Counted from the first letter of the stretch, positions 26,022 through 64,000 are shown. The stretch is 64,000 nt of DNA from Bacteroidota bacterium (GCA_043783155.1 JAYVZS010000065.1:5480-69479); one strand, 5' to 3'. Notes: generated by a model not told the origin, from the letters alone. Numbers and translations are program-made.

Positions 26022-26024
26022 TCC

Positions 26025-31002: not shown

Positions 31003-31035
31003 AAGTTCAGTTTAGTGTTCAGGAATCCGGAAAAA

Positions 31036-33159: not shown

Positions 33160-33267
33160 CACGATAAGGCGTTTATTTAGTGTGTTTAAGAAAGTAAATA
33201 TATTAGTAATTTTTGTAAAAACCATGAACTAATTTGAGAGCGTAGAATGTTGACAATCCCCTGACAA

Positions 33268-46707: not shown

Positions 46708-47406
46708 ATGAATAAGGTTGTAAAAAATTCTGAAGAAGCCATTCGCGGTATACAGGATGGAATGACTCTGATGGTAGGAGGTTTCGGGCTATGTGGCATT
46801 CCGGAAAACTGCATCGCCGCACTTGTAAAATCAGGCGTGAAAAAATTAACATGTATTTCCAATAACGCAGGTGTTGATGACTTCGGCCTTGGGTTGCTGC
46901 TGCAACAACGGCAGATCAAAAAAATGATTTCATCGTACGTCGGTGAAAATGCAGAGTTTGAACGACAGATGTTAAGTGGTGAACTCGAAGTTGAATTAGT
47001 TCCGCAGGGAACTCTTGCCACCCGTTGTCTTGCTGCCGGTTACGGAATGCCCGTTGTGTACACGCCCGCCGGCGTGGGAACAGAAGTAGCTATCGGGAAA
47101 GAAGTTCGTAACTTCAAAGGCAAAGATTATCTGATGGAATATGCCTTTGAAGCAGACTTCGCGATCGTGAAAGCGTGGAAAGGCGATACGCATGGCAACC
47201 TGGTTTTTCATGAAACGGCACGCAACTTTAACCCGCTGATGGCGATGGCAGGAAAAATTACCATTGCGGAAGTGGAACACCTTGTCGAGCCCGGTACTCT
47301 TGATCCTGATCATATTCACACGCCTGGAATTTATATTCATCGCATTTTTGAAGGGACGAAATATGAGAAACGCATTGAGCAGCGAACTGTAAAAAACAGA
47401 ACCTGA
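46708..47406 (+). CDS. scoA: 3-oxoacid CoA-transferase subunit A
   Basis: [42 protein letters not shown]. Confidence 0.93.
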
Positions 47407-47438
47407 ATGTTGTTTCATAAAACATTTATTTTCACGCG

Positions 47439-48947
47439 TTGACAAATCATCGTCCTTTTCGCTGGAGTGTTGCAGCTGCAATTGCCATTGCCTGTTTTTG
47501 TTTTTTTTATACGTTGTGTCGCGCGGAGAAATTATCCATGACGTGTGACGAAGCTTATACCTACCAGATTTTTCATGGTAATTCAGATCCGCTGCATACC
47601 GCAAATCATCATATTTTGAATACCTATATGATGCGGGCTTTTTCAATCGTTTTTGGAGAAAGTAAATTCGTCCTGAGATCGCCCAACCTGGTCGCTCATT
47701 TATTATTCCTGTTTTTTGGTTATTTAATTTTAACACGATTAAAAAAACAATGGCTGGTAATTGCTGCATACCTGTCATTGAATCTGAACCCGTTTCTTCT
47801 TGAGTTCTTTTCCCTCGCGCGCGGCTATGGATTGTCAATGGGCTTCATGACAGCAGGTCTCTGGATGTTTTTAATGCATCTTGAAAAACAAACGGACCAG
47901 CAAAAAAAACCCATTCAATTTTTGTACGGCGCATTCATCTGCGCAGCCCTGGCCGTGCTTTCCAATTTTATGATGACTTATTTTTATGTTGGCCTGCTAT
48001 CTCTTTATTTTTTTATGGAAGTAAGAAAATCATCTTCCCCAAAAAAAATTGTTATACATTTAAAAAAGAATGCCGGTTTTTATTTTTTAAATTTTTTGTT
48101 TCTGATTTTTGTTTACCGTAATGTTTCTGTGCTTAACCGGGAACATCAACTTTATTACGGAGGCCAGCTTGGATTTTACTCTGATACTATTTCTTCCTTA
48201 GTGGATGACTCGCTGTCAGAAAAAATAAGGTACTTTAATGTTTCCGTTATTCCCGATCATTTTTTCAGTCTTGCCGTAGTCATTCTTTTCATACTCGCAA
48301 CCCTTACTTTATTAAAAAGCATACTCGTTAAGCAGATAAAGATTGATTTTTCCATTCTCTTTTACCTGCTGAGCATTACATGTTTACTACCCGTTATTTT
48401 GTGGTGGCTTACCGGTACGCTTTTACCAACCAACAGGACTGCCCTGGTTTATTATCCTTTATTCATCCTGATGCTTTTTTTTATGCTGAAAGAATTAACC
48501 CTGTCACAAAAAAAAACAGTAAAGATTTTTTCTCTAGTTTTTAGTTTGTTTATTTGCTCCTTGTTAGTCGCCAACATGGCTTTCAGCGCCAACTTTAAAA
48601 ATACGACTGAATGGAAGTATGACGCGAACGATGAAAATATGATTCAGGCGCTTCGGGATGATGTATTAAAAAGACATGCGTCACGTCAGGTTTCACTGGG
48701 TGTCAATTGGCTGTTCGAAGCCAGCATCAACTACTATCGTGAATACAAAGAATTAACCTGGTTGAAACCGGTTAATCACAATGATTACGACACAACTTCA
48801 TTTGACTATTTTTACATCTTTGCAGATGATTCTTTCCACACAGCTTCAAAAATTGAAATTGACACTGTAAAGAAATTTGAATCAACAATTTTACTTCGAA
48901 AAAAAACTAACTCATGCTTGATAAAACCGGGATCGCAAAAAGAATAG
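47439..48947 (+). CDS. GT-C-like polytopic membrane protein
   Basis: TCDEAYTY acidic loop motif, ANHHILNT, FSLARGYG, about 11 hydrophobic segments, soluble C-terminal domain. Confidence 0.75.
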   Translation: MTNHRPFRWSVAAAIAIACFCFFYTLCRAEKLSMTCDEAYTYQIFHGNSDPLHTANHHILNTYMMRAFSIVFGESKFVLRSPNLVAHLLFLFFGYLILTRLKKQWLVIAAYLSLNLNPFLLEFFSLARGYGLSMGFMTAGLWMFLMHLEKQTDQQKKPIQFLYGAFICAALAVLSNFMMTYFYVGLLSLYFFMEVRKSSSPKKIVIHLKKNAGFYFLNFLFLIFVYRNVSVLNREHQLYYGGQLGFYSDTISSLVDDSLSEKIRYFNVSVIPDHFFSLAVVILFILATLTLLKSILVKQIKIDFSILFYLLSITCLLPVILWWLTGTLLPTNRTALVYYPLFILMLFFMLKELTLSQKKTVKIFSLVFSLFICSLLVANMAFSANFKNTTEWKYDANDENMIQALRDDVLKRHASRQVSLGVNWLFEASINYYREYKELTWLKPVNHNDYDTTSFDYFYIFADDSFHTASKIEIDTVKKFESTILLRKKTNSCLIKPGSQKE

Positions 48948-49573
48948 CAAAGGAAATTAAAGACGGGTACTACGTAAACCTCGGCATTGGAATCCCGACA
49001 CTCGTTGCGAATTATATTCCGGAGGGAATGGATGTGGTGCTTCAGTCAGAAAACGGGTTATTGGGAATGGGACCTTTTCCATTTGAAGGCGAAGAAGATC
49101 CCGATTTAATTAATGCAGGAAAGCAAACCATCACGACCGTTCCGGGAAGTGTATTTTTTGATTCCGCGATGAGTTTTGGAATGATCAGAGCCGGAAAAGT
49201 AAACCTGACCATTTTAGGAGCCATGGAAGTAAGTGAAAACGGCGATATTGCGAACTGGAAAATTCCAGGCAAAATGGTAAAAGGAATGGGGGGTGCAATG
49301 GATTTGGTCGCGTCAGCAAAAAATATTATTGTTGCCATGCAGCATGTAAACAAAGGCGGTGAATCGAAACTATTACCGACCTGCAGTTTGCCCCTTACCG
49401 GAATTCGTTGCGTGAAAAGAATTGTGACAGAACTTGCCGTAATAGATGTACTACCAGGCGGCGGATTCAAACTGATTGAACGGGCACCCGGAATTTCCGT
49501 CGATGAAATCAAAAAAGCAACAGCCGGAAAACTGTTGGTTGAAGGAGATATCCCGGAAATGAATATTCTTTGA
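48914..49573 (+). CDS. scoB: 3-oxoacid CoA-transferase subunit B
   Basis: VNLGIGIP, LQSENG (catalytic Glu), INAGK, ILGAMEV, GMGGAMDL. Confidence 0.95.
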   Translation: MLDKTGIAKRIAKEIKDGYYVNLGIGIPTLVANYIPEGMDVVLQSENGLLGMGPFPFEGEEDPDLINAGKQTITTVPGSVFFDSAMSFGMIRAGKVNLTILGAMEVSENGDIANWKIPGKMVKGMGGAMDLVASAKNIIVAMQHVNKGGESKLLPTCSLPLTGIRCVKRIVTELAVIDVLPGGGFKLIERAPGISVDEIKKATAGKLLVEGDIPEMNIL

Positions 49574-49602
49574 TCCTTTAATTCTAAAATAAAAATTTTA
49601 CA

Positions 49603-50319
49603 ATGATTAAGTTTGATAAGCTCTCTATCATCATTCCGTGTTACAACGAAGAACGGACTGTGCATTTAATTCTCGATAAGGTTTTGAAAGTAAAATTGCT
49701 CAATAACATTCAGAAGGAACTGATCATTGTAAATGATTGCTCAAAAGATAAAACCAGGGAAGCGATCGAAAACTATTTTCGAATTCACCCTGAAATTGAT
49801 CACAAACTTTTCAATCATGAAGTAAACAAAGGAAAGGGAGCGGCCATTCATACCGGTATAACAAAAGCGACCGGTGATTACCTCATCATCCAGGATGCCG
49901 ATCTCGAGTACGATCCGAATGAATACAACCTGTTGCTGCAACCGGTGCTCGACGGTTTTGCAGATGTTGTTTTCGGATCACGGTTTATGGGAGGAAATCC
50001 TCACCGCATATTATTCTTCTGGCATTCCATCGGTAACAAACTCCTCACCACATTATCAAACGCGTTAACGAATCTCAACCTCTCGGATATGGAAACGTGC
50101 TACAAACTTTTCAGAACCGACATCATTCAAAAAATAGATCTCAAAGAAAAAAGATTTGGTTTTGAACCGGAAGTAACGGCAAAAATTTCGAAAGTTCCAA
50201 ACGTGCGCCTGTACGAAGTTGGCATATCCTACTACGGCCGGACGTATGAAGAAGGAAAAAAAATTGGTTGGAAAGACGGGGTTCGGGCCATTTGGTGCAT
50301 ATTGAAATACAACCTGTGA
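49603..50319 (+). CDS. GT2 glycosyltransferase (polyprenyl-phosphate sugar synthase-like)
   Basis: [28 protein letters not shown] (DxD), [26 protein letters not shown]. Confidence 0.93.
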
Positions 50320-52850
50320 ATAATCGCACGATGGCTCCCGGTCACGAAATCACCTCACATACTCTTTTTAAGGGTGAGAAAAAATTTCTACTATTTATTC
50401 TGCCAATTGTCTACGGCATCTTAACCTTTCTTTTCTGGTACCAGTGCAAATCTTTTTTTGCAAGTTATCCCGACAGAATTTATGTATACCTGATTAGTGC
50501 ATTGGACATTGCAGGTGGTAGTTTTGATGTCGGCGAATTTCAGCATCCCGGAACGCCTGTTCACTGGATTGCAGGATTGACTCTTTTTATCACTCATCTT
50601 TTTGCAGGAAGAGGTCCTTTGGCTGAAGATGTTTTCGCTAACCCTGAATTTTATTTAAGAGTCTGCGCTGTTGTAATCACAACACTGTTTTTATTTATCG
50701 TCTATTTAAGCGGGCGATTGGTTTTAAATAATACCCGGAACATCCGGATGGCCGTTCTCTTCCAACTCGTACCGATAAGTTCATACCTGGCTTTACAATA
50801 CCTCATGATTATGCCTGAGGCATTGATATTAATATCTCTTACTTATTATTGTGCTTTCTTATGGGTGCTTTGCTATAACAGGAATAAATTTCCAGAACAT
50901 TCATTCGGCAACCGGAATTATATTTTCTTTTTTTCATTCATGAGTGCGTTGTTAATTACAACTAAAATAACGTGTCTGCCATTTTTAATCATCCCGCTAT
51001 TTTTTATCAGACCACATTCAAAAAAAATTCTGTACCTGTTCTCAACAGTAATTCTTGCGCTGCTCATCATTTATCCCATTTGGTCAAAGATTCCTGCCAT
51101 GTATCACTGGCTGTATGGAGTCGCATCACATTCAGGTCAATATGGAACCGGAAAAGTTGAAGTGGTGAATTCCGCTTCGTTTTTTCCTGACTTAGTCAGT
51201 TTATTCCGTTCCGAATTATTCTTTTCAATCGGCTATCTTCTTATTTCAGGAAGCGTTATAGCCGGTTTGTTAATGAAGAAGAAAGGAAACCCCTTTTTTA
51301 CACTGGCAGTTGCGCTCTGGCTGACAATCACGATTCAGATTTTTCTTACTGTAAAACACTACAGCTATCATTATATATTGCCCGCGCAATTATTAATTAT
51401 TCCCGGTATATTGGCTGCCTTCACATCGCTGATTACCATGAAGCCAAACAAGGTTGTCTGTTATTCCGCACTTGGAATTTGTCTTACGTGGCTTTTGTAT
51501 GAAAGTACCATCAGCGCTAATTTATATAAAGACGGCAATGCAGTATATGAATCAAGCCTTGTTGCAAAAAAATATGCGACGCTTCCTAAAATAATTACAA
51601 CTACGTTCGGCGAATCCTGTTTTGTTGAGTCTGCGCTTAATTACTCTTCTTATTACGCCGGTAAAGACTATACATCCTATTATTATTTTTTAAGAAAACT
51701 TTATCCGAATTCTTTTTTTTATGACATTCCGGTTGCCGGTACTATCAAATGGTGGGATATGCCTGTAACTCCGGCTGAATTATTTCAGAATAATCCTGAA
51801 GTACTTGTCTACTTTAAAGGACTGTTTGAGAATGATGAGCGAAGTACCATGAAGATCCTGACAAATGGAATTGATTCGGCAGTTACCGGTATTCACCTTC
51901 TCAATTACAATGCGGCTACCAGCGAACGGTTTTATATGATTGGTGTGGATACTTCTAAAATAAAAATACAATACGAAGAGAAGATCACCATCAAATATGA
52001 TTTCGAAAAAAAGACGTCCGATCTTTCTGCGTTCCTTTCAACTGACTCAAACTATAAAACAACAGATGTTCAATTCGGTTCAACAGAACAACATTTTTCG
52101 GGGACCCATTCACTCAAACTCCATTCGAATCAATATCCCTGTTGTACTACTTTTTCTGTTAGCCCGGGCGATGCCTTTGATATCTCCGTTAACTATTATT
52201 CGAATGACAGGCCGGTGGGTATAACTCTTTCTTCCGCTCAACCTGGTCTGTTTGACAGATCAAGCGAATCAATTGTTCAGGAATTCGACAACGGCTGGAA
52301 ACGTGTTAACCTGAAGACAACAATACCAGACGATTGTCCTGCAAAAGAACTAAGCTTCTGTCTTTATTATTTTGGTCACAAAACCTGCTTTGTGGATGAC
52401 TTGAATATTACTATTTTTAAAAAAAATAAAAGCAGGTTAGATCCCGATAAAAAAAAATCATACACACTATCAAAATTTATTTTAAAAACGTCTTCCGATC
52501 AATACATATCATATAGCCCGGAAAAATATCAGCTTTGGGGAAATCAACCACAAGGTTCCAGAGCAACAGTATTTGAACCCGTTATTTTAAGAAATGGCAA
52601 GTATGCTTTGAAAGCGTCAAATGGTATGTTTGTATGCGCAGACCGAAGCGACCATTCAAATCTTTTTGCAAACAGAAATAGCCCGGGAGAATGGGAATCC
52701 TTTGAAATTATTTTCCATGACAGCACACACATCAACCTAAAATCATCTGACGGTAAATTTGTCTGTGCCGATCAAAAACTGAATGGCGTACTCGTTGCGA
52801 ATCGAAATGAAGCACAGGATTGGGAAACATTTAGTTTAGTACGCAAATAA
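50316..52850 (+). CDS. GT-C-like membrane protein with a CBM-like domain and a C-terminal fascin-like beta-trefoil
   Basis: About 11 TM segments, QHPGTP, TKIT motifs; jelly-roll (FSGTHSLKL...WKRV...FVDDLNI); three LK..N/D.xxV.AD...L.ANR....WExF repeats at about 52467-52847. GTG start overlaps the GT2 stop (GTGA). Confidence 0.8.
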
Positions 52851-52858
52851 TAATCCGG

Positions 52859-54331
52859 ATGAAAAAATATATTTTCTTTTTTCTTTTTCTTTCTCTTGGG
52901 GGAATTATTTACCTGGCATTTCCCATTCATTCAAAAGTCGGGTTTGTTTCAATGCGTGACAATAAATTTTTTTTGAATGGAGAAGAATTTTACCCGGTTG
53001 CAGTCAACTACTTTGTTTCGGCGCAGGGAGATGAAAATAACTATTGGGCGAGTCCGTGCTTCGATTACAACACCGATCCAAAATATCAATACACATCGAA
53101 AGATTCCAGCTTGAAACAATTACGGGCAGACATGAACCTGATTAAAGAAATGGGATTTAATTCCGTGAGACTTGTCGGGATGAGCGAAGTACAGGTAGAC
53201 GAACAAAACGGAAAACTTGCAATCACTGTCAAAGACCGAAACCATGAAACTTCGATCGCACTTTCCAGCGATGCAAGCTTCAAAAAATATTTAAGCGCTC
53301 TTGCAGAGTTAGTTGACATCGCTGACAAAGCGGGATTAAAAGTCATCCTATTAACAAAAGTGCGTCCCGGGTTTATCTCTTCTGAAGATCTTTTGAGAAG
53401 ACTTGCGATTCAATTCCGGAATGATACAACAATCATGGCCTTTGATTTATTTAATGAACCGTTGTATTTTGATTTAACAGGTAGAAGCAAGAAAGAAGTA
53501 TATGATGCCGTTAGAGATTGGAGAAAAATTCTCCGGATGTATGCGCCCAATCAATTAACCACGATCGGGCTCGAAGGAATCAGGGAAGTGTTTAAGTGGG
53601 ATCCGAATATATTAGATGTTGATTTTGTTTCCATGCATCCTTACGAATACGAACCGGAACAGGTCAGGAATGAAATATACTGGTATAGCAGGCATATAAA
53701 AAAGCCCTGGATATTGGGCGAAACAGCGGTGCCTGCTGACGGAGATTCCGTTGACTATAATGTTCAGAAAAAATTTGCCGTTAAAACTTTAAAGCAAACC
53801 TATAATTGCGGAGGCGCCGGTTATTCATGGTGGCAATACAAAGATGTAAACTGGCTTTCCTTTCATGCGAATTTTATGGGAGTACTTAATTTGAAAGGCG
53901 AAACCAAAGCAGCAAATGACAGTTTTGTCATTCATGGAACACGCAAGGCGGTGTCGGAAGCATTTAAAGAATTTGATTCATCCGCAAAAAAAGACAGTTG
54001 TATTTGTTTATCCAACTACAACGATTATTCTCAATTGCGCGACTGCAGGATAACAGGAAGATTAGTTGATGAAAAAAATAATCCGGTTGACGGAGGCGTT
54101 GTTCTTGCGTGGAATCAATGGTGGTCGCATTCTTATCATGCCATCAGCAAGGCGGACGGTAGTTTTGCCGTAACCGGAAATTTTCCTTTTTATCACTGGA
54201 TGGCATCGGCAACAGAATATTCTATGGTGCGTGGCGATGTATTGCCCGACACCTCAAAAGTTTCCAATGATAAAATTCCAACGTTGAACCTGGGAGATTT
54301 AAAAATAAGTAAATTATCTTTTATCAAGTAA
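52859..54331 (+). CDS. Clan GH-A glycoside hydrolase (GH5/GH2-like), membrane-anchored
   Basis: MGFNSVR, FDLFNEP (acid/base), MHPY, ILGET (nucleophile), WWQY. Confidence 0.82.
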   Translation: MKKYIFFFLFLSLGGIIYLAFPIHSKVGFVSMRDNKFFLNGEEFYPVAVNYFVSAQGDENNYWASPCFDYNTDPKYQYTSKDSSLKQLRADMNLIKEMGFNSVRLVGMSEVQVDEQNGKLAITVKDRNHETSIALSSDASFKKYLSALAELVDIADKAGLKVILLTKVRPGFISSEDLLRRLAIQFRNDTTIMAFDLFNEPLYFDLTGRSKKEVYDAVRDWRKILRMYAPNQLTTIGLEGIREVFKWDPNILDVDFVSMHPYEYEPEQVRNEIYWYSRHIKKPWILGETAVPADGDSVDYNVQKKFAVKTLKQTYNCGGAGYSWWQYKDVNWLSFHANFMGVLNLKGETKAANDSFVIHGTRKAVSEAFKEFDSSAKKDSCICLSNYNDYSQLRDCRITGRLVDEKNNPVDGGVVLAWNQWWSHSYHAISKADGSFAVTGNFPFYHWMASATEYSMVRGDVLPDTSKVSNDKIPTLNLGDLKISKLSFIK

Positions 54332-54609
54332 AGCCCACTCGTTTTAATTGGTTGCTTCTAACTACGGTAATATATGGATTAAATGATTTCCGAAAAAAAA
54401 TGAAACCCTTAAGATATCATGGTCATACTAATAAGGCAGCTTTGATTATACAATCAATATTTACGCGAAACATTTATGGGGTTTGCAGCTTGAAAAACCC
54501 TTGTTCAATTTTAATGATGGATCTTTCCCATCCCCTTATCGAATCATACTCTCAACTATTTACAATCGGTTAAATTATTTGTTAGTGCTTAGTATAAGAA
54601 AACACACTT

Positions 54610-56520
54610 ATGTATTTGTCTGAACAAAAAAAAGGTATCATTACCTACTCTGGCATATTTTTTATCATTTGCTTTTCATTTAGATATTACGCCCCTTGCA
54701 ATTTTGGCTTGTTCAACTCAGATGAGGCTATCCATGTCTTAATGTCAAAATCCTTTCTGCTACCCAGGGATTTTTATTACTGGGGACAAAACCGGCTTGG
54801 AAGTTTATTGCCAATGACGGCTTACGGCTTACGAAAAATATTTCCCATACACTATTTATATATATGTTCTATTGTTCAGTTCTTGTTTCTATTTACGGGC
54901 TTTTATATTTTATCAAGGGAGATTAAGAGTTCTATTTTAAAAGTGTGCCTCTGTTTACTGATCTTCTTACCGGTAAATGAATACAATGCTTTGATCCTAG
55001 TTGGTCACCCTTATTCGTCACAGCTCTTTGCTGGATCACTCTTTATCTATTTTCTCTCTTTGTTAAGAAAATACTTGCTGCGAAATGAAATATTCGGCTT
55101 TTATCAGTTTTTCACTTCTTTATTTATATGTGTTGGTGCGATCATTTTTTTTACAATTGGTATTTGGGTTTCGGAATTTAATGCAGTACTGATTTTAGTA
55201 CCCATTTTCTATATCCTATTCGAAAAGAATTTAAGGTTAAAAATTTTAGTCCAGTCCCGAATACCCTTATTTGTAGTTCTCGAAATTTCATGGATCATTA
55301 TTATTCTTTTAGGTTATTTTTCCTACAGGCAAATTAAACTGTCTGCGATTCAAATTCCAGATTCTGTTCTTTATAATAAATTTTTTGTGGAAAATTTAAA
55401 TGATGTCAAAACAATTTTTGATCAATTTCTGATCAATTTGAAAACCACTTTGTTTTTTAAAGATATATATACATTAGATAGTCTTTTTAATTGGTTCCTT
55501 GTACTGTTAACCATCATTATTGTTTTAATCCGGGTCATTAAGAAAACAAAACGAAGAAATGGTAATGCTACACTGATTAATAGTTTATTACTGGTCGTTG
55601 TTGCATCTTCTCTTGCATTATTTTCTTCTTCCTGGTTATTGAGGGTAGGTTTTAGTTCAAAATATTTTACCCCTGTTTATATTGTATATTGCTTTACCCT
55701 TTTGCTGCTTTTTGATCAATTTCAATATAAAAAATTGCAATTTATAAGCTTGCTTGGCTTTCTTTTTTTTACTGTATTATATTGTTATAACCTTGTCATA
55801 AAATACACGTTAGAGGGTCCATTTAAATTGTACGGAGAGTTTAGAAATTTACCTAAAGGAACTTTAATTGGTGATTACTGGGATGTATATAAAATTAATT
55901 CAGTAGCAATTGACAGTTTAAAATCTCTGCCTTTCGATTACTCAACTGTAAGAACCTGGGATTGGAGAAATGAATCTTTGGCCGAAGACAATTTCTATTT
56001 TTTGGACACTCACAAAATTATTCAAGATACCCTCAGAGAAAATATTTTACAATTTGGGGTATTATTTAACTACGCCGGCAAAAAATACAATTACAATAAT
56101 ATTGATGTATTGCTTTATCACAAATCCAGTTCACAACCTTTGTCCAAATTTATCTTGAAAGCATCCAACAATCAATATGTAACAATTAGTTCCGATAATC
56201 ATTCACTAATTGCAAATGCCTCGGATCCTTCGAAGGCGGAAGTATTTGAGTTGATTGCAGCAAGAAACGGTAATGCAATAAAAACTGCTGAAGGAAAATT
56301 CGTTTGTGCTGATTTCAGCAATCGGACAAATCTTATAGCGGAAAGTAACCGTATTTCGGATTGGGAATATTTTAAAATCATCTTCGTCGGACAATCTGAA
56401 ATTAACCTCGTGTCATCATCCGGTATGTTTGTTTGTGCTGACCGTATTTTAGGTGACAGTATTTTTGCAAATCGGAAGGAAGCCAGAGAATGGGAAACAT
56501 TTAAGTTAGAGCCAAAATAA
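54610..56520 (+). CDS. GT-C-like membrane protein with a C-terminal fascin-like beta-trefoil
   Basis: FNSDEAIHVLM acidic loop, YYWGQNRLGS, many TM segments; trefoil repeats at about 56140-56517. Confidence 0.8.
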   Translation: MYLSEQKKGIITYSGIFFIICFSFRYYAPCNFGLFNSDEAIHVLMSKSFLLPRDFYYWGQNRLGSLLPMTAYGLRKIFPIHYLYICSIVQFLFLFTGFYILSREIKSSILKVCLCLLIFLPVNEYNALILVGHPYSSQLFAGSLFIYFLSLLRKYLLRNEIFGFYQFFTSLFICVGAIIFFTIGIWVSEFNAVLILVPIFYILFEKNLRLKILVQSRIPLFVVLEISWIIIILLGYFSYRQIKLSAIQIPDSVLYNKFFVENLNDVKTIFDQFLINLKTTLFFKDIYTLDSLFNWFLVLLTIIIVLIRVIKKTKRRNGNATLINSLLLVVVASSLALFSSSWLLRVGFSSKYFTPVYIVYCFTLLLLFDQFQYKKLQFISLLGFLFFTVLYCYNLVIKYTLEGPFKLYGEFRNLPKGTLIGDYWDVYKINSVAIDSLKSLPFDYSTVRTWDWRNESLAEDNFYFLDTHKIIQDTLRENILQFGVLFNYAGKKYNYNNIDVLLYHKSSSQPLSKFILKASNNQYVTISSDNHSLIANASDPSKAEVFELIAARNGNAIKTAEGKFVCADFSNRTNLIAESNRISDWEYFKIIFVGQSEINLVSSSGMFVCADRILGDSIFANRKEAREWETFKLEPK

Positions 56521-56768
56521 ATTTACAACCCAAATAATTACATGGTTTTTTTTCGTCTTACGAGACAATTCCCATTAACACTAATAGATTCTATAATTTC
56601 AGTTTCTGTAAAGAGAACTTTGCTGAAATCCTCAGGGGGCTGGTAGTAATAATCATCCTCTGTTTTAAAACCTGATCGGTAAACTTCTTTTAGCCAATCC
56701 AACTTAAAACCAACAAACCTGTCAAAAAATAAAAGGGTAGTCGATTCGACTTTTGCATAACAGTTTTT
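56521..56768 (-). pseudogene. Start-less gene remnant resembling the C-terminus of a GT-C-like membrane protein
   Basis: Open minus-strand frame (KNCYAKVESTTLLFFDRFVGFKLDWLKEVYRSGFKTEDDYYY...) bounded upstream by TAG with no start codon; resembles the 47439 ORF tail (EASINYYREYKELTWLKPV...DYFY). Confidence 0.35.
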
Positions 56769-56821
56769 CTATTTCTGCGCCTTACAATAAAATGGAATTT
56801 CAACTTTTAAAGAACCAAAGA

Positions 56822-58480
56822 TTATTTCCATATTAGTTTGAATTTTTCCTTTCTTCCGATGGATTCACCATCGGCAAAAAGCTGGGATGTCCTTTCATCA
56901 ACACTCAGGAATTTTCCGTTTGTCGCCATAAAAGCAACCGTATCATTTCCAAGTTCGATTAAAGTAAATTTCTCCCAATCATACATGGCTTCTCTTGTTG
57001 CCGTAATTTCATTTTTTTTCGCCAACTCTGCAGTCAAAAATTTATTGGTGAAAGCCGTGATTGCACATTTATTGTTTTCAAGTTTCCACATTGAAAATAA
57101 TTCCCATGGAAAAGCATGATCCTGGTTCGCTACAATCGGATCATTATGCGAATTATCATCGGATACATATCGGCCATTGCAGGCTTTTAAATAAAATCCT
57201 TTCCTGCCCTCATAAATCTCCAACGCTTTTTCTCTGACGAGACTATCGAATTCAAACGAACCCGGTTTGAAGTTATGGGTGTAACTCGAAATCCACATGC
57301 TATCCGTTTTCAAATCCTCAACCAGGTTATTTAGTATTTTGTTACTCACAACGTTTTCTAAATAGTACTCTGTAATTCCGAATGGAAAGCAATTGGTATT
57401 CCCGAGCGAGCCGATCAGTACAACATAATCCGCGCTTTCAATTTCTTTCGGCAAATCCAGCGTTTTCAATGGAATGCCCTGATCATCGTTGAGCGCATAG
57501 GAAGTGGTAGCGAAATAATACCAGTATTTTGATTCATCCGAAAATATATACCGTAGTTTTTTCTGCTCCTTTATCTGCCAGAAAAAACTATCTCCGATAA
57601 TTAATACCCTCGGACGATAATTCCCAAGAGTAGTCTTGTCCATTTCCAATTTACGGTACGCGTAACGCGGCTGATTCAGACTGAAAAATAAATTCAAGGG
57701 CCCTTCAAAGTCAGCGTCAGGCTCCCTTGGTTTATCCGACCACTCAACGCCAGTGTATTTATAGGAAGGCATTGGCTTTGAAACGGTATGTTGTATATAC
57801 TTCACAAGAGTATCCTGCGCGACCGAAGCGGCATACATCGACCAGTGAAAACCGGTTTTTGTGAATAGAGGATACGCGCCTGTATCGCGCAGCGTTTTGA
57901 AGTATGATACAAGATCTATAAAAGGAATATGGTATTTTTGGTAATCCTGAACATCGTCTTCGTAATCCGTTTCCTCCTTGTTAATACTTCTAAAGGATGG
58001 TGGCAAAAAATCGGGCAATACACTTTCTTTGGATGGGACAATGAGCACAAGAAGATGAGCGCCATGTCTTTCTATTCCGTCCTTCATCAGTTTAATTTTT
58101 CTGACGATCGAATCATTCCCGTTTTTCCCGTTATACAATTGTCCCCTTGTTCGATAAACAGAATACACACTGAAAATAAAACCATCTTTTCCGGCAACGT
58201 TGTCATTAACGCTTAATTCCCTGAAGAATATATACTCCAGGCTATTCTTAACTTTTACAAAAAATGCGCGGAAGCCAAAATTACTGTTTTCGTAATCCTC
58301 CGTCTTCTTCTGAAATGAAAGTGATGCTATATCCGTGATAGAAATTGTTGGTTTCTCAGGTTTAACGAATGCTCCTTTCAATTCCGGTTCTTTAAATATC
58401 TGTGTTGCTTGCTGGATTAACGGCACCCATAACAAAGCAAGGAGAAAAACAAAGATCACTGTTTTTATTTTCCTGTCCAT
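56822..58480 (-). CDS. AlgJ/AlgX-like SGNH O-acyltransferase with a C-terminal fascin-like beta-trefoil
   Basis: N-terminal anchor, GKDGFIF, VPSKE, FTKTGFHWS, IIGDSF; trefoil repeats at about 56825-57205. Confidence 0.85.
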   Translation of the reverse strand: MDRKIKTVIFVFLLALLWVPLIQQATQIFKEPELKGAFVKPEKPTISITDIASLSFQKKTEDYENSNFGFRAFFVKVKNSLEYIFFRELSVNDNVAGKDGFIFSVYSVYRTRGQLYNGKNGNDSIVRKIKLMKDGIERHGAHLLVLIVPSKESVLPDFLPPSFRSINKEETDYEDDVQDYQKYHIPFIDLVSYFKTLRDTGAYPLFTKTGFHWSMYAASVAQDTLVKYIQHTVSKPMPSYKYTGVEWSDKPREPDADFEGPLNLFFSLNQPRYAYRKLEMDKTTLGNYRPRVLIIGDSFFWQIKEQKKLRYIFSDESKYWYYFATTSYALNDDQGIPLKTLDLPKEIESADYVVLIGSLGNTNCFPFGITEYYLENVVSNKILNNLVEDLKTDSMWISSYTHNFKPGSFEFDSLVREKALEIYEGRKGFYLKACNGRYVSDDNSHNDPIVANQDHAFPWELFSMWKLENNKCAITAFTNKFLTAELAKKNEITATREAMYDWEKFTLIELGNDTVAFMATNGKFLSVDERTSQLFADGESIGRKEKFKLIWK

Positions 58481-59895
58481 TAGAATTTAAAATAGATAAA
58501 CGGATTAAATCCCATGGAAGTAATTTCACCGATACACAAAGTCATGAAAACGATTACAACCAGCGCATTTAAGGAAGCCCGCCTGACACTCAAGGGCCCC
58601 GCCGGTATCAATTGTGGTATTTTTAATTTTGCATACAGCAACGGAATAAAAGACAGTAGGATCGCTATCACCAATACGAACGTTACATGAGCAGTGAGGA
58701 AATATTCATGTGTTGAAAAAGAAAACATTTTCTTTAAGAACATAAACGCCTGCTGCATATTATCTGAACGAAACGGAATCCATCCGATCACAACGATAAA
58801 AAAAGTAATCAGCATTCTTGGAATCGAGCCCATGCGTTCGGTGAGTTTTAATAAAAACACTCTGTCCAACACCAGAAAAAGTCCGTGGTACGCTCCCCAG
58901 ATAATAAAGGTCCATTGCGCGCCATGCCAGAATCCGGAAATCAAAAACACCACGCATAAATTAAAATACATTTTTGGAACAGATACTTTATTTCCGCCTA
59001 AAGAAATGTATAGGTAGTCGCGCATCCACCTGCTTAAAGACATGTGCCATCTTTTCCAGAAATCAGTAATGCTTTGAGCGATGTACGGATGATTGAAGTT
59101 TTCCGGAAAAGAAAATCCCATCATCTTACCGAGCCCGATGGCCATATCGGAATAGCCTGAGAAGTCAAAGAAAATCTGGAATGTATAACAGATCGCACCG
59201 ATCCAGGCTGAAGATGCTGAAAGTTCGGCATACTCCAAGTGAAATATTTTATCTGCTTCTGCTCCAAGGACATTTGCAATCAATACTTTTTTAGCAAGCC
59301 CGATACTGAAGCGAAATAAACCTGGCAGGAAATTGTCGACGTTGTCAAGAAAGTTTCTTCCCTTAATCTGGTCTGCAATTTCATTGAAGCGAATAATTGG
59401 TCCGGCAATCAACTGGGGGAAAAGAAAAATATAAAGCGCATAATCAATGATGTTTTTCATTGGTGGCTTCACTCTCCTATAAACATCAATGAGATAACTC
59501 ATTTCATGAAAAACAAAAAAGGAAATACCGATGGGAAGTGCAACACGGGTAAAAGAAATTTCATTTTTTCCGACAGCATGCATCAGTACGTTCAGGTTGT
59601 CAACAAAAAAATTGAAGTATTTAAAATAGACCAGGACGGATACATTAAAAATTATTCCGATCGTAAGAATATATTTCCTTTTATTTCCCTCACTTTTATG
59701 GATAAAACGCGCGAGGAAAAAATCCGCGATAACAGCCGAAGATAAAATAAAAACAAATTGCGGAGCTCCCCATGCATAGAACAATACACTTGCAAGAACT
59801 ATAAAGTAATTTTTAAAACCGGCAGGCAATAAATAATAGATGGTAAAAAAGGCCGGCAAAAAATACAATAAAAAAAAGGTGCTGCTAAAAAGCAT
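58480..59895 (-). CDS. MBOAT family O-acyltransferase (AlgI/DltB-like)
   Basis: MLFSS..FL..FLP, LPIGISFF, FPQLIAGPIIR, QIFFDFSGYSDMAIG, ENFNHPY, FWKRWHMSLS, SGFWHGA. Confidence 0.95.
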   Translation of the reverse strand: MLFSSTFFLLYFLPAFFTIYYLLPAGFKNYFIVLASVLFYAWGAPQFVFILSSAVIADFFLARFIHKSEGNKRKYILTIGIIFNVSVLVYFKYFNFFVDNLNVLMHAVGKNEISFTRVALPIGISFFVFHEMSYLIDVYRRVKPPMKNIIDYALYIFLFPQLIAGPIIRFNEIADQIKGRNFLDNVDNFLPGLFRFSIGLAKKVLIANVLGAEADKIFHLEYAELSASSAWIGAICYTFQIFFDFSGYSDMAIGLGKMMGFSFPENFNHPYIAQSITDFWKRWHMSLSRWMRDYLYISLGGNKVSVPKMYFNLCVVFLISGFWHGAQWTFIIWGAYHGLFLVLDRVFLLKLTERMGSIPRMLITFFIVVIGWIPFRSDNMQQAFMFLKKMFSFSTHEYFLTAHVTFVLVIAILLSFIPLLYAKLKIPQLIPAGPLSVRRASLNALVVIVFMTLCIGEITSMGFNPFIYFKF

Positions 59896-59953
59896 GGTTG
59901 TCTGTCAGGTTATGATTCAAAGATGAAATTTTTATTCAGATTCATCCTCCTGT

Positions 59954-61789
59954 TTATTTAACAATAAGCATAAATTTTTCATGCGCCCCGATAGATTCAC
60001 TCTTCGCGAACAACTGGCTTGATTTCTCATCAACACTCAGGTACTTATCATTCGTTGCTTTGAAGGCAACGAGTCCGTTGCCCAATTCCGTCATCCTGAA
60101 TGTTTCCCAGCTTCCTACTGAATTTCTTGAAGCCGTAATCCTGTTTTCATGATTTAACTCACAACAAAAAAAATAATTATCAGACGAACAAATCGCGCAT
60201 TCTCCATTACCAAAAAGAATCAATATAAAAGTTTCCCAATCGTAAGCATCGTTACGGTTGGCAACAACCATGTCCTTTAACAATTGATCGGCACATACAT
60301 ATTTATTGTTCCATGCTTTTAAGTGAATAAGCTTTCTGCTTTCCTCATTTTTATTCGTGTAGGTATTCTGTACTTTACCTGCGGCGACAGACGGAGGAGT
60401 AAAATCCGCCCGCTTACCACCTTTCGCGCTTTCAGAATCCGGAGGTTTCAGATATTTGTCAAAATCCTCAATGGTAGACATCTTACCAAATTGTTTGAAG
60501 TAAAGTTCCTTCGTCATCGAATCCCAATGAAGTGAATGGTATTCGAATTGAAACGTCTGAAAGATATTCAGCCATATAAAAAATGAGACGATGACGATAA
60601 ATGCTCCTTTAACAATCCATTTCCTGCCGGAAACAAATTGTATGAATGACGCAAACGGAATGGCAAGCATCGCGTAACTGTCAATCATCGGGCGTTGTCC
60701 GAAAGTACCGCCATACCACCAGCACCACCATGAAAATATAATGTAGATGTTGGCGATAAAAAATAATACGATGGCCCATCGTAATTTTTTCGCTGCATCC
60801 TTCAACAAAAATATTCCGATCAATGAGAATCCCATCATCGGGGTATACAACAACCAGCCTTTTCGAAAACTAAACATTCCCTGTAATATTTTCGGGTCAT
60901 TGAAAAAAAATCGTTCGTCGGTATACGAATAACACAGGTAATGGCCGGTTACTTTTTTCCAATAAAGAAACTGCGGAATCCAGATCAGGAAAGTAAGAAG
61001 GAAAATAAAGATGAACAGGTACCATTTTTTCAGGAAGAAGAGTATTCGCTCTTTGAATTCAGCCAATTTGGATATTCCGTACAAAGCAAAGAACAGCAGG
61101 ATCACAATGTTGCTGGGTCGTATCAGCGTAATCAAACCCAGCAACAATCCGAGTATCAGAGTATGTTTAATGGATGCTGACTCGTACCATTTAATTGTAT
61201 AAAAAATAAAAACTGCGAACAAGCAGAAATTATATACATGCGGATTGGGCGCCGACTGCGATGCATAACACAACAGGTTTGTCCCTAACCCGATCAGCAA
61301 AATTGTAATCGCAATGTGTTTATCTGAAAAACTGAAATGTCGTAAAATTTTTCTGAGGAATTCCAATCCGACAAATAAATAAAATATGGCACTCAGCAAA
61401 AGAAAAAATTTGTACGGTTCCGAAAAACCATCTTCCGGATAATCGGTGAGCATGGCAAAGCCATGAGCGACAAAGAAAAAAGGAGCATATAAAATTGAAA
61501 GTCCCATGGTTGATTTAATAATCCTCTTCCCTTCTGATGTTTCAACAGTCCAGAATAAATAATAATTATCTCCCTGCTTGTAATCGCTTTTTGATAATGT
61601 GATGTCGTGGTAGATAAATGTAGCAGGAAGATATCCGTAATACCAATGAACATCATGTTCAATGACACGATCGCGCTTTTTCCAGTTCTTTAAATTAAAA
61701 TCAATGGCAACGCTGGCGAATACAACAATGGCAATCGCCAGAGTTGACAATTGCACATTCCACCTTCCACTTGCTTTAAAATAATTCAT
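59954..61789 (-). CDS. GT-C-like membrane protein with a C-terminal fascin-like beta-trefoil
   Basis: HDVHWYYGYLP, GLSILYAPFF, GLGTNL, LIRPSN, KGWLLYTP, FGQRPMID; trefoil repeats at about 59957-60337. Confidence 0.82.
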   Translation of the reverse strand: MNYFKASGRWNVQLSTLAIAIVVFASVAIDFNLKNWKKRDRVIEHDVHWYYGYLPATFIYHDITLSKSDYKQGDNYYLFWTVETSEGKRIIKSTMGLSILYAPFFFVAHGFAMLTDYPEDGFSEPYKFFLLLSAIFYLFVGLEFLRKILRHFSFSDKHIAITILLIGLGTNLLCYASQSAPNPHVYNFCLFAVFIFYTIKWYESASIKHTLILGLLLGLITLIRPSNIVILLFFALYGISKLAEFKERILFFLKKWYLFIFIFLLTFLIWIPQFLYWKKVTGHYLCYSYTDERFFFNDPKILQGMFSFRKGWLLYTPMMGFSLIGIFLLKDAAKKLRWAIVLFFIANIYIIFSWWCWWYGGTFGQRPMIDSYAMLAIPFASFIQFVSGRKWIVKGAFIVIVSFFIWLNIFQTFQFEYHSLHWDSMTKELYFKQFGKMSTIEDFDKYLKPPDSESAKGGKRADFTPPSVAAGKVQNTYTNKNEESRKLIHLKAWNNKYVCADQLLKDMVVANRNDAYDWETFILILFGNGECAICSSDNYFFCCELNHENRITASRNSVGSWETFRMTELGNGLVAFKATNDKYLSVDEKSSQLFAKSESIGAHEKFMLIVK

Positions 61790-61833
61790 TTCATATTTAA
61801 TAAAATCTCACCGGAGAAATTCCGATGAATAAT

Positions 61834-62691
61834 TCAATTTACTCTATACCAAAATGAGCCGCCATGCCTCTCAACATTCCCCAGGTTCTCATGATTCCAA
61901 ACTGATTCCAGTATTTTACTTAACTCAGTATCTTCACTCACGAAGAACCCGGGCATCAGAATCTCATACCGTTCCGGATTCGACAACAGCATGGCCGCCA
62001 GTAAATATTGTTCGGAATAAAACCGGTCGCACATAAACTGCGGATAATCATACGGAAGATAGATATCATGAATGTGAACAATCACTCCCTTCTTTAGCTT
62101 AGGAAGAATTTCGAGGAAACAAACTGTCACATCAGAATTCGGAAAGCAGCGATGCGAATTATCAATGAACAGAATATCATTTTCCTGAAGCGACTGAATG
62201 AATGTATAGTCAGTCATGTCCTCCGCCGGCTGACGAATTACCTTGTCAGCAAGATGATCGATCGACGCTCTTGGAAAAGGATCCACAGAGGTAATCTGCG
62301 TTTGCAATCCTTCGTCGTTGATCGCCTTTCGTGCCACCTTCGTAGAATTACCTGAACCGATTTCGATGTACTGTTTCGGTTTGTACATGCGAATCAAACT
62401 GTACAAAGAAATGATATCAAGACCGGGCAAATATTCATTGTTCCATCTTGGTTCGGCTTCAACCGTTTCTTTGTTATTCGTTTTAATGGCATGAAAAATA
62501 TTTTTGTAATTCAAAAACTGAGAAAGAGATGAAGCATATTCGTTTCGCCTTTTATTTACAATTTGATACAATTCTTTATGCGGCGGCTTTCCGAATCCAT
62601 ATCGTGGTTTAAAGTCGACCTTGTATTCAAGAAACAACGTTTGAAATTTAGGAGAAAGAAAATGATGAACCGATCGGAGAAGATTTTTCAT
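61834..62691 (-). CDS. Class I SAM-dependent methyltransferase (Methyltransf_24-like)
   Basis: YIEIGSGNST, SVDPFP, LFIDNSH, VHIHDI..PYDYP, SEQYLL. Confidence 0.9.
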   Translation of the reverse strand: MKNLLRSVHHFLSPKFQTLFLEYKVDFKPRYGFGKPPHKELYQIVNKRRNEYASSLSQFLNYKNIFHAIKTNNKETVEAEPRWNNEYLPGLDIISLYSLIRMYKPKQYIEIGSGNSTKVARKAINDEGLQTQITSVDPFPRASIDHLADKVIRQPAEDMTDYTFIQSLQENDILFIDNSHRCFPNSDVTVCFLEILPKLKKGVIVHIHDIYLPYDYPQFMCDRFYSEQYLLAAMLLSNPERYEILMPGFFVSEDTELSKILESVWNHENLGNVERHGGSFWYRVN

Positions 62692-62751
62692 TTGACCAAT
62701 TTATAGCTTTAATATCATTCGACAAAAAATGTTAAAACAAATATTCTATCT

Positions 62752-64000
62752 TCAGATTCTCCGGAAAACAACCACTCTGAATCGTTCTTTATTGCCCGGT
62801 GTTACGACGATCGCAGATAAAAATGAATTGAGCATTTTGAAATTTTTATTGCCTTCCAATTTTTGCAACGGTATCCTTCCTTCATTCGGGCCGAAGTGCG
62901 AATCCCAAATCACCAATTCGCCCGGCGCTACGCTTATTTCAGGAGTTTCCGGATTTAAAGCATAAAATTCCACGGCAGAATTTTTATCAAATGGATCTTT
63001 GTTTAATTCATACACAACAAAGGGATGAGCGTAAAATATTTTCGCAGAAGAAAGATTCTCCCGCTGTATCCAGGTATCTGCCTGGTGTAAGGTAGACTCT
63101 TCATAATCGAGATGTTCAGGAAACGTATGTTGTCTGAAAGGAATCGCAATTATCAAAATCAGAAATACAGCTTTGATAATAACTGAATTCTTAACACTCA
63201 AAACGGCATTCGCCCCACGTAAAGCAAGTAACGCAAGCAAGGGCGTTACCGCCGCCATTACGCGAATCAATCCGTCGGAGCCAAACCATCCTTTCCACCA
63301 GAAAATAGAATGTGCAACAAAATAAATGACGAAGCTTCCGTATAATAAGAGCGATTCTTCGATTCTGATTTCATTGAAAAAAATTCCCTCCTCTTTCTTT
63401 TTTACGAACAAACTAATTAGTCCTGTTAGTATAAGGACAACGAGTGCTGTTCCGAAAATAAATTCATTTTGGCTGAGGAAGAAAAATAAACTGCCATTGC
63501 CATAGATATTTTTTCCCGATGTATAAGGATCCTGGTGAGCCAGCCAGAAAAAATCATGAAAATAAATCAAGCCAATCAGACTATACACGATTGTTCCCGT
63601 TACCAGCCAGGGAACTGCCGAAATTTTTTTTCTGTATAGCAGAACAAAAGCAAAAAGCGGAAGCAATAAATATCCTTCACTTCTGATGAATGGAAGGAAT
63701 GACAACGTGATCGATGACAGAAAATATTTTTTTTCCACGAAAAGAAAAATGGAAAATACCAGGATAAAACCAAAAAATATTTCCGTAAGTCCTGAGAAAA
63801 TAACAACAAAATAAACGGGTGCAAACAAACTCATAAAAATCACCAGCCAGGAATTTTTAAAACTGAATTTCTTCGCAAGCAGATACATCAGATACGCAGT
63901 ACTCAATGCACAGATGGTGTTAAAAATATTCATTCCTAAAAACCCGAATTGAGCGAACGGGGAACTGACAAGAATAAAAAAGGGTTTACCCCAATGATGC
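62752..64000 (-). CDS. GT-C-like (ArnT-related) membrane protein (partial; 5' end beyond the window)
   Basis: Frame stays open upstream of the track start to the window edge (HHWGKPFFILVSSPFAQFG...), followed by SGLTE, RSEG and multiple TM segments. Confidence 0.78.
   Translation of the reverse strand, partial: HHWGKPFFILVSSPFAQFGFLGMNIFNTICALSTAYLMYLLAKKFSFKNSWLVIFMSLFAPVYFVVIFSGLTEIFFGFILVFSIFLFVEKKYFLSSITLSFLPFIRSEGYLLLPLFAFVLLYRKKISAVPWLVTGTIVYSLIGLIYFHDFFWLAHQDPYTSGKNIYGNGSLFFFLSQNEFIFGTALVVLILTGLISLFVKKKEEGIFFNEIRIEESLLLYGSFVIYFVAHSIFWWKGWFGSDGLIRVMAAVTPLLALLALRGANAVLSVKNSVIIKAVFLILIIAIPFRQHTFPEHLDYEESTLHQADTWIQRENLSSAKIFYAHPFVVYELNKDPFDKNSAVEFYALNPETPEISVAPGELVIWDSHFGPNEGRIPLQKLEGNKNFKMLNSFLSAIVVTPGNKERFRVVVFRRI

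Follow-up and report, generated by a model that had tools for sequence, protein, structure and literature searches.

A candidate island for extracytoplasmic glycan extension and tailoring, with shared CBM92-type tails, in uncultured Bacteroidota

Described systems and how the island compares

The described systems closest to the locus analysed here are the three-component glycosylation systems (GtrA/GtrB/Gtr*, CsbB/GtcA/YfhO and GT136 ORF12-15), in which a glycosyltransferase family 2 (GT2) enzyme of the polyprenyl-phosphate-sugar-synthase class is paired one-to-one with a GT-C glycosyltransferase (PMC11127046), and the mycobacterial lipomannan/lipoarabinomannan and arabinan pathways (Ppm1, PimE, MptA-C, EmbA-C, AftA-D), in which one lipid-phosphate-sugar donor serves many polymer-building and branching GT-Cs outside the cytoplasm (PMC3044687). 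GT-C enzymes with an acceptor-binding carbohydrate-binding module (CBM) have precedents in GT136 ORF12, EmbC and AftD (PMC11127046; PMC3044687). In this study, we analysed a window of 64,000 nucleotides (G000:C65:5480-69479; JAYVZS010000065.1) from a 3.3-Mb, 99.9%-complete Bacteroidota metagenome-assembled genome (MAG) whose nearest relatives are uncultured Bacteroidota. Two convergent gene blocks at 46.7-64 kb of the window hold one GT2, five polytopic membrane proteins (M1 to M5), a glycoside hydrolase family 5 (GH5)-like protein, an MBOAT/AlgX-like pair and a methyltransferase. We consider it modestly probable that this island encodes an extracytoplasmic line for glycan extension and tailoring, which draws on a lipid-phosphate hexose and in which CBM92-type tails serve as address tags.

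Like the three-component systems, the island places a GT2 of the polyprenyl-phosphate-sugar-synthase class beside GT-Cs, and their ORF12 has an acceptor-binding CBM. It differs from them in that five GT-C-like proteins of unrelated families accompany the single GT2, the GT2 is without the transmembrane (TM) hairpin, GtrA, SMR and MATE genes are absent from the locus and GtrA from the genome, and an anchored GH5, the MBOAT/AlgX pair and a shared CBM92 tag are part of the island. The scheme of one lipid-linked donor and many GT-Cs would be common to the island and the mycobacterial pathways; moreover, Ppm1 is likewise without a TM helix, and some species encode it as a fusion with a membrane partner, comparable to the GT2-M2 fusion described below, and EmbC and AftD have lectin-like CBMs. 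In contrast to mycobacteria, the present island belongs to another phylum with a Gram-negative envelope, its GT-C families are unrelated, its CBM92 trefoil is shared with an O-acyltransferase, and it is known from genes alone.

Two further comparisons concern the tailoring enzymes. The O-acetylation machineries of alginate and acetylated cellulose (AlgI/AlgJ/AlgF/AlgX; WssH/WssI) likewise couple an MBOAT translationally to a periplasmic AlgX/AlgJ-type SGNH-like protein, and AlgX itself has a C-terminal CBM; here, however, no AlgF/AlgK-type partners occur, Gly stands in place of the DxH Asp, and the CBM92 is shared with glycosyltransferases. BcsZ (GH8) and PslG (GH39) exemplify periplasmic, membrane-tethered endo-type hydrolases among synthesis genes, whereas the hydrolase of the island is a divergent GH5 without a close characterised relative and with a presumed role. 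The literature searched for GT-C proteins with CBM92, with fascin-like domains or with MBOAT in Bacteroidota gave no description of such a system, which agrees, for that literature, with the original prediction from the sequence of the window that the system is undescribed.

Membrane proteins and their putative sugar donor

First, the fold of M2 (50331-52850, plus strand, 839 aa) carries the case for extracytoplasmic sugar transfer. This protein comprises a GT-C membrane domain (residues ~1-415), an alpha/beta domain, a CBM_4_9-like jelly roll (~545-700) and a CBM92 trefoil (713-839). Its AlphaFold2 model, built with 21 homologues (pLDDT 83.9), was matched by Foldseek to ALG12 (9s6t, 3.4e-5, TMt 0.51), AglB (7e9s), Pmt4 (9i5k), PglB (5ogl), AftB (9dlf) and DPY19 (7zli) at 3e-5 to 5e-4, in a list that also holds trefoil and jelly-roll matches. 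All six are GT-C enzymes with polyprenyl-linked donors. As judged from the superposition of the model on these enzymes, M2 is shown to adopt the GT-C fold that had been proposed for it; its start is the ATG at 50331, close to the 50316 given previously. Among its 21 homologues, three had a CBM_4_9 match and one a PMT_2 match.

Second, M1 (47439-48947, plus strand, 502 aa), placed between scoA and scoB, belongs to the PMT_2 (GT39/GT83-like) type, with 28.2 bits against a cut-off of 26.1 in the window scan and 31.3 bits in the genome search, and its assignment as a GT-C by sequence is sound. Third, profile comparison related the other families to PMT_2. When each was aligned by hhalign to 12 PMT_2 paralogs of the same genome, with M1 left out of the target and MBOAT as control, the probabilities were 97.3% for M1, 93.7% for M2 and 96.2% for both M3 and M5, compared with at most 1.7% for the control; in the alignment of M3 to PMT_2, SDEAIHVLM falls on WDEQFHALV. 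In addition, the membrane profile of each family was searched against the 1663 open reading frames (ORFs) of at least 250 aa of the genome, which has 13 PMT_2 genes (11 above the cut-off and two just below). For M3, M4 and M5 alike, the best out-of-family match came from these 13 proteins, namely M1 for M3, the highest-scoring PMT_2 protein for M4 and a PMT_2 paralogue for M5. The assignment as GT-Cs of M3 (54610-56520, plus strand, 636 aa; DUF7910 40 bits) and of M5 (minus strand, 468 aa, without CBM92; 62752-64158 in window-equivalent numbering, as the gene passes the window end) is well supported by these profiles.

M4 (59954-61789, minus strand, 611 aa), which has a trefoil fold at its C-terminus and represents the commonest GT-C-like family of such islands, is a probable GT-C. 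It matched NCBIfam NF047440 (LA_3751/LA_3752 "putative glycosyltransferase") at 4.3e-10, and two of the 46 family members had a PMT_2 match, the best at 4.3e-6. In its AlphaFold2 model (46 homologues, pLDDT 89.2), TM1 at residues 14-33 is followed by a long loop with two short helices, and a search of BFVD with this model returned only unnamed viral membrane proteins.

An acidic residue in the first extracytoplasmic loop is a hallmark of GT-C enzymes. The first-loop acidic motifs that had been noticed before proved real: an Asp lies 10-20 residues past TM1 in all five families and is conserved in at least 90% of the members (M1 D37-E38, 6/6; M2 D48, 19/21; M3 D38, 53/58; M4 D46, 45/46, and D62, 46/46; M5 D34, 13/14). 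The proposal of five GT-C-like proteins is therefore upheld for M2 by its fold, for M1 by Pfam and for M3 and M5 by profile, but reaches only a probable assignment for M4. M1 to M5 presumably use a polyprenyl-phosphate-linked sugar donor. Other searches were less productive. Single-sequence and profile searches of PDB sequences with M1, M2 and M4 found no membrane-domain match, Pfam at E<=10 gave nothing useful for the membrane-only parts of M2, M3 and M4 or for full-length M5, and the trefoil was the only part to align in the A1 versus A2 alignments.

Including 13 PMT_2 genes, four M4-family copies (on contigs C65, C105, C107 and C9), M2, M3 and M5, the genome has about 20 GT-C-like genes; on contig C119 a paralogue of M1 (348 bits) adjoins the top PMT_2 gene. 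The GC content of M3 (0.322) is below that of the window (0.40) and of its neighbours (0.38-0.41), and this low value suggests a recently acquired cassette.

The GT2 (49603-50319, plus strand, 238 aa; Pfam Glycos_transf_2, 110 bits) is the candidate source of the donor. Its top PDB relatives were P. furiosus DPMS (5mlz, 1.8e-15 over residues 6-231), GtrB (5ekp) and ArnC (9bhc), while its NCBIfam matches (AglJ, PpgS, ArnC and dolichyl-phosphate-hexose transferase) were all below cut-off, with the scores to DPMS and AglJ exceeding that to ArnC. TM helices are absent from it, including the C-terminal ones that GtrB has. By sequence, it is probably a polyprenyl-phosphate hexose synthase of the DPM1/GtrB/ArnC class. 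In one 933-aa protein encoded on a Logan contig (P0123), a GT2 part (residues 2-235, 61% identity) is fused in frame to the membrane and middle domains of M2 (residues 254-933, 54% identity).

CBM92-type tails, tailoring enzymes and exchange of cassettes

A C-terminal beta-trefoil of ~125 aa (Pfam DUF7910/Fascin/FRG1) is common to M2, M3, M4 and the AlgX-like protein, and is absent from M1, M5 and the GH5. CBM92, also called the bacterial fascin-like domain, has at most three WExF sites, each paired with an Arg, by which it binds beta-1,6/1,3-glucans; characterised members bind polymeric beta-glucans multivalently, natural members short of a site exist, and nearly every multi-modular CBM92 protein includes a glycoside hydrolase (GH) or polysaccharide lyase (PL) (PMC11039641). 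The tails matched the solved Chitinophaga pinensis CBM92 by sequence with E-values of 1e-8 to 1e-13, the M2 trefoil matched 7zoh/7zoi at 2e-7, and the TM-scores against 7zoh, 7zoi and 7zon were 0.88-0.91 for the M4 tail and 0.83-0.87 for that of M2. Each tail has two (A)NR(N)xxxxWExF motifs, arranged x/W/W in M2 and M3 and W/W/x in M4 and the AlgX-like protein, and the upstream Arg is present in most of them. The likeness to CpCBM92A/B (7ZOH/7ZOI) extends from the beta-trefoil (TM-score 0.83-0.91) to the repeated WExF with upstream Arg. In contrast, two of the three sites are found here, and the partners are membrane glycosyltransferases and an acyltransferase rather than a GH or PL. By analogy, the tails may bind a beta-1,6/1,3-glucan-like glycan.

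A family search of the whole genome found just four copies of DUF7910/CBM92, all within 10 kb. That the only copies of this domain belong to these four genes is the strongest evidence that the GT-like proteins and the acyltransferase act on one substrate, and, together with the recurrence of the gene set in other MAGs, it indicates a gene association beyond chance. Among 121 genomes of the same order, 26 have DUF7910, in one to four copies, mostly on frames of 600-700 aa.

The tail of the AlgX-like protein shares 50% identity with that of M4. A tree of 29 tails separated a clade of M2, M3 and stand-alone copies from a clade of M4, AlgX-like and other tails (support 93/94), and within the second clade the tails of different enzymes from the same locus paired with each other (M4 and AlgX-like of L029, 99/98; L031, 100/99), which argues for tail exchange or concerted evolution within loci. 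In L029 (10001-14911) and L031 (10019-13882), the same-locus tails are near-identical over long stretches, and M4 and the AlgX-like protein of L029 share WDWETFIVEKQKNNTVALKASNGKYV; this near-identity points to gene conversion or recent domain swapping. Furthermore, relatives have a stand-alone CBM92 of ~160 aa that adjoins the GT2 (L028 18978-19469, L029 18936-19418, L030 15159-15650, L037 8776-9249). Most of these copies have one hydrophobic segment, and none occurs in the present genome.

Three kinds of tailoring enzyme accompany the membrane proteins. The GH5-like protein of clan GH-A (52859-54331, plus strand, 490 aa; Pfam Cellulase 37.5 bits, cut-off 23.5) has an N-terminal signal-anchor of one hydrophobic helix and a C-terminal CarboxypepD_reg-like beta-sandwich, and its N199-E200-P201 (acid/base) and G287-E288-T289 (nucleophile E288) are invariant in 12 orthologues. 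No PDB relative was found with the single sequence; the profile gave only weak matches, to endocellulase E1 and beta-mannanases, and the PDB sequence and profile searches gave no subfamily assignment. This GH5 is rare in the phylum (2 of 151 evenly sampled genomes). The MBOAT (58480-59895, minus strand, 471 aa; AlgI/DltB-like) scored 128 bits to Pfam MBOAT and 157 bits, below cut-off, to TIGR04091 DltB, and contains the His motif FWHG; its stop codon overlaps by 1 nt the start of the AlgX/AlgJ-like SGNH O-acyltransferase (56822-58480, minus strand, 552 aa; ALGX 49.7 bits, cut-off 26.5; DUF7910 46 bits). The latter has an N-terminal anchor besides its C-terminal CBM92, and H212-W-S214 and D297-S298 are invariant in 10 orthologues. 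The two Pfam scores agree with the idea of an AlgI/AlgJ-type pair. The third is a class I S-adenosylmethionine methyltransferase (Methyltransf_24, 51 bits; 61834-62691, minus strand, 285 aa) without an NCBIfam match or a PDB relative, which is a strain-specific accessory gene. The gene proposed for methylation does exist, but its part in periplasmic tailoring is doubtful because it lacks a predicted membrane segment; related loci contain no homologue of it.

The conservation of the island was examined in 80 further loci fetched with the M4 family as query, the counts being taken from the 40 longest loci that have an M4-family gene at the centre. A trefoil occurred in 16 of these, the GT2 in 15 (orthologues of 340-450 bits that adjoin M4-family genes), the GH5 in 13, M5 in 11, the MBOAT and M2 in seven each, M3 in three and the methyltransferase in none. 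The most recurrent trio consists of GT2, an M4-family gene and the anchored GH5, and the remaining cassettes vary. Members of the M4 family are also present in Draconibacterium, Vicingus serpentipes and Bacteroidales bacterium 6E. In look-ups with M4 homologues, the island was found in NCBI, JGI and Logan MAGs, bounded by scoAB/PBP1a and the ABC ATPase, and in the order ABC ATPase, at least one M4-type gene (many with trefoils), MBOAT with AlgX-trefoil, GH5, M2, 160-aa CBM92, GT2, scoB/scoA and PBP1a. Closer relatives differ in their cassettes. In G003, a genome from the same genus, GT2, an M4-like gene, GH5 and two trefoil-tailed membrane proteins are followed, in place of the methyltransferase and the MBOAT/AlgX pair, by an SxtJ-like small membrane protein, a NodU/CmcH-type carbamoyltransferase (323 + 242 bits) and a GDSL-like protein (L014 9567-13376); the tailoring cassettes look swappable, with O-carbamoyl standing for O-acyl and O-methyl groups. 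In another genome (G002), nine different polytopic proteins occur together with a GtrB-like GT2 of 309 aa. The chromosomal site of the island is fixed and its content hypervariable, with cassettes exchanged between close relatives. One MAG contains two consecutive MBOAT and AlgX-trefoil pairs (L034 3208-9163).

In the window, the plus block runs scoA, M1, scoB, GT2, M2, GH5, M3 and the minus block comprises M5, methyltransferase, M4, MBOAT and AlgX-like gene, as given by the ORF list and the Pfam/NCBIfam scans, and the blocks meet at 56520-56822. The gene list and the convergent layout of the original prediction were recovered in this way, and three features are new to it: the CBM92-type tails, the location of M1 between scoA and scoB, and a permease-less ABC ATPase whose gene overlaps the start of M5. 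The subunits of the 3-oxoacid CoA-transferase are encoded by scoA (46708-47406, plus strand; CoA_trans 258 bits) and scoB (48914-49573, plus strand; TIGR02428 318 bits, cut-off 243). The GT-C-like insertion between them (46708-49573 here) has counterparts with different GT-C genes in L091 (2780-5976) and L019 (10017-16829), and the link between scoAB and the island could be one of synteny or of acyl-CoA supply. The ABC ATPase (596 aa, oligo_HPY; window-equivalent 64155-65945, L002 2635-4425) lies outside the window, upstream of M5; its end overlaps the start of M5 in ATGA, so that M5 is translationally coupled to it. As a Dpp/Opp-type double nucleotide-binding-domain protein without permease, and part of the conserved flank, it was ruled out as a glycan exporter. 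A scan for promoters and terminators found no more sites than in shuffled sequence.

The contig extends just 2.2 kb beyond the window end. Within the ORFs scanned at 17-64 kb and in this remainder, there were no genes for Wzx, Wzy, an ABC exporter permease (Wzm/Wzt), a priming phosphoglycosyltransferase or nucleotide-sugar synthesis, and thus the absence of Wzx/Wzy, ABC exporter and nucleotide-sugar genes noted previously holds over this range, and the flank, up to the contig end, shows no standard Wzy/ABC cluster. A standard capsule or O-antigen locus was ruled out for want, over the same range, of Wzx, Wzy, Wzm/Wzt and a priming transferase. The locus also contains no small polytopic ORF. 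Elsewhere in the window, a polyprenyl synthetase (23295-24278, minus strand) is followed by a second PMT_2 GT-C (24525-26021, 57 bits) and, 4 nt downstream of it, a GH16 with a C-terminal sorting domain of the type IX secretion system (T9SS; 26025-27221); at 24525-27221, a GT-C and a beta-glucanase-type hydrolase are again paired. Two paralogous M43 metallopeptidases, which have PKD domains and T9SS sorting tails, are encoded in tandem at 28927-33225.

Competing interpretations and what the island may mean

On the strength of homology, fold, profile comparison and gene context, the steps of an extracytoplasmic line can be proposed as follows. In the cytoplasm, the GT2, possibly held at the membrane by M2, would charge polyprenyl phosphate with a hexose (probably glucose or mannose) drawn from a housekeeping nucleotide sugar, and some flippase would then flip the lipid-linked sugar. 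At the periplasmic face, M1 to M5 might each add the sugar in a different linkage or position, extending and branching a glycan on a primer made elsewhere, in the way of the PPM- and DPA-dependent GT-Cs of mycobacterial lipomannan/lipoarabinomannan and arabinan. The WExF sites of characterised CBM92s clamp the terminal glucose of beta-1,6/1,3-glucans, and M2, M3 and M4 may be held on the growing glycan by their lectin domains with two such sites each. The MBOAT would pass an acyl group, probably acetyl, across the membrane to the AlgX-like protein, which would O-acylate the same glycan, and the anchored GH5 may trim or release beta-linked chains, as BcsZ or PslG do elsewhere. The methyltransferase would be a strain-specific extra, and the swapping of cassettes at a fixed site could give rise to strain-specific surface glycans. 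The WExF tails, the CBM_4_9-like domain and the clan GH-A hydrolase weakly suggest that the glycan is beta-linked and rich in glucose, a proposal that we advance tentatively, at a little under even confidence.

Several observations weigh against this interpretation. Regarding the membrane proteins, M4 reached only 40% in hhalign to the PMT_2 paralogs (75% when M1 was included), all 50 PDB matches listed by Foldseek for its model were beta-trefoils that crowded out the membrane domain, and hhalign among the five membrane families gave no significant relation (under 1-13%). Regarding donor supply and export, GtrA (PF04138) had no match in the whole genome at E<=1, the locus has neither a MATE nor an SMR flippase gene, and a priming enzyme, an acceptor and an outer-membrane export route are likewise not visible; the lack of a GtrA-family protein despite about 20 GT-C-like genes points to an unrecognised lipid-sugar flippase. 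The GT2-M2 fusion comes from one contig only and could be a sequencing error. Regarding the tails and tailoring enzymes, each tail is down one of the three CBM92 sites and its ligand is judged from distant relatives of 21-25% identity; the Asp of the DxH motif, which would complete a canonical Asp-His-Ser triad, is Gly210 in all 10 AlgX-like orthologues, and the methyltransferase has no predicted membrane segment and no homologue in ~100 related loci. Finally, synteny alone could account for scoAB and the ABC ATPase beside the island, and the source is an uncultured organism.

The most serious competitor, which we nevertheless consider unlikely, is pure decoration, in which each GT-C would add, in the manner of Gtr systems, a single side-chain sugar to a finished lipopolysaccharide (LPS) O-chain or core, a protein O-glycan or the T9SS A-LPS anchor. 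Three-component decoration systems are typified by a GT2 that accompanies a GT-C (PMC11127046), acetyl and methyl groups are common on Bacteroidota O-glycans (PMC12871550), the locus lacks a priming enzyme, a polymerase and an exporter, and its content differs between strains as in serotype loci. However, five GT-Cs per donor synthase contrast with the one-to-one ratio of Gtr systems, GtrA is missing from the genome, the recurrent anchored GH5, whose catalytic residues appear intact by sequence, would have no role in simple decoration, and characterised CBM92s bind polymeric beta-glucans multivalently (PMC11039641). The original prediction had favoured decoration of an existing glycoconjugate without polymerisation. 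Its core logic, with a GT2 making the donor, GT-C transfer outside the cytoplasm and AlgI/AlgJ-type acylation, is supported, subject to the probable status of M4. Neither the restriction to decoration nor the acceptors named for it (protein O-glycan, LPS or T9SS anchor) are supported; five GT-Cs per donor synthase, a conserved anchored GH5 and putatively polymer-binding tails are fitted at least as well by extension and branching of a glucan-like chain. All of the mechanistic steps are deduced.

Protein or lipid A glycosylation appears more doubtful still, and we regard it as improbable. Under this explanation, the membrane proteins would act in PMT/TMTC-like O-mannosylation or as ArnT-like enzymes, with the tails serving otherwise, for example in binding environmental beta-glucan. 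PMT_2, which covers ArnT and protein mannosyltransferases, is indeed the sole sequence-level family link of M1 to M5; M1 and M5 have no CBM, and 13 PMT_2-type genes in the genome and many T9SS cargo proteins nearby would suit such a role. Nevertheless, a tail that is confined, within this genome, to the AlgX-like protein and three GT-Cs speaks for one glycan as the substrate of all four, the GH5 and the MBOAT/AlgX pair are of glycan-active types, and the GT2 gives higher scores with DPMS and AglJ than with ArnC.

It is very improbable that the genes form no single system and are unrelated neighbours in a recombination hot spot. Relatives differ strongly in gene content, only this genome has the methyltransferase, and scoAB and the ABC ATPase are probably flanks only; but all four CBM92 copies lie within 10 kb, the gene set recurs in distant MAGs, tails have been exchanged within loci, and gene starts and stops overlap (MBOAT/AlgX, ABC/M5). 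A catabolic or scavenging locus, in which external beta-glucan would be bound and cleaved by the CBM92 and GH5 proteins and the membrane proteins would serve as transporters or sensors, is hardly tenable, since, although CBM92 is almost always reported with glycoside hydrolases or lyases (PMC11039641) and both a GH5 and, 25 kb upstream, a GH16 with a T9SS signal are present, the locus has no SusC/SusD pair, transporter family match or regulator, M2 is modelled with a GT-C fold, the MBOAT/AlgX pair and the DPMS-like GT2 are biosynthetic, and the GH5 itself lacks CBM92. A polysaccharide utilisation locus was ruled out by the lack of SusC/D and by the biosynthetic chemistry.

Returning to an extracytoplasmic extension and tailoring line, a broader and rather speculative possibility is that a widespread Bacteroidota pathway builds a strain-variable glycan wholly in the periplasm from a single lipid-phosphate hexose, without a GtrA-type flippase and with sets of GT-Cs and an O-acyltransferase addressed by interchangeable, locus-homogenised CBM92 tails. 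If such a line exists, Gram-negative Bacteroidota would own a mycobacteria-like, GT-C-driven assembly of envelope glycans outside the cytoplasm, and the hypervariable island would probably help to diversify the cell surface in the face of phages and grazers. In addition, CBM92, so far a degradative module, would gain a biosynthetic role as a shared product-recognition tag. The presence of the same tail in the same locus would then offer a simple rule for finding the enzymes of one glycan, and the tails themselves might be used as probes to pull down and identify that glycan.

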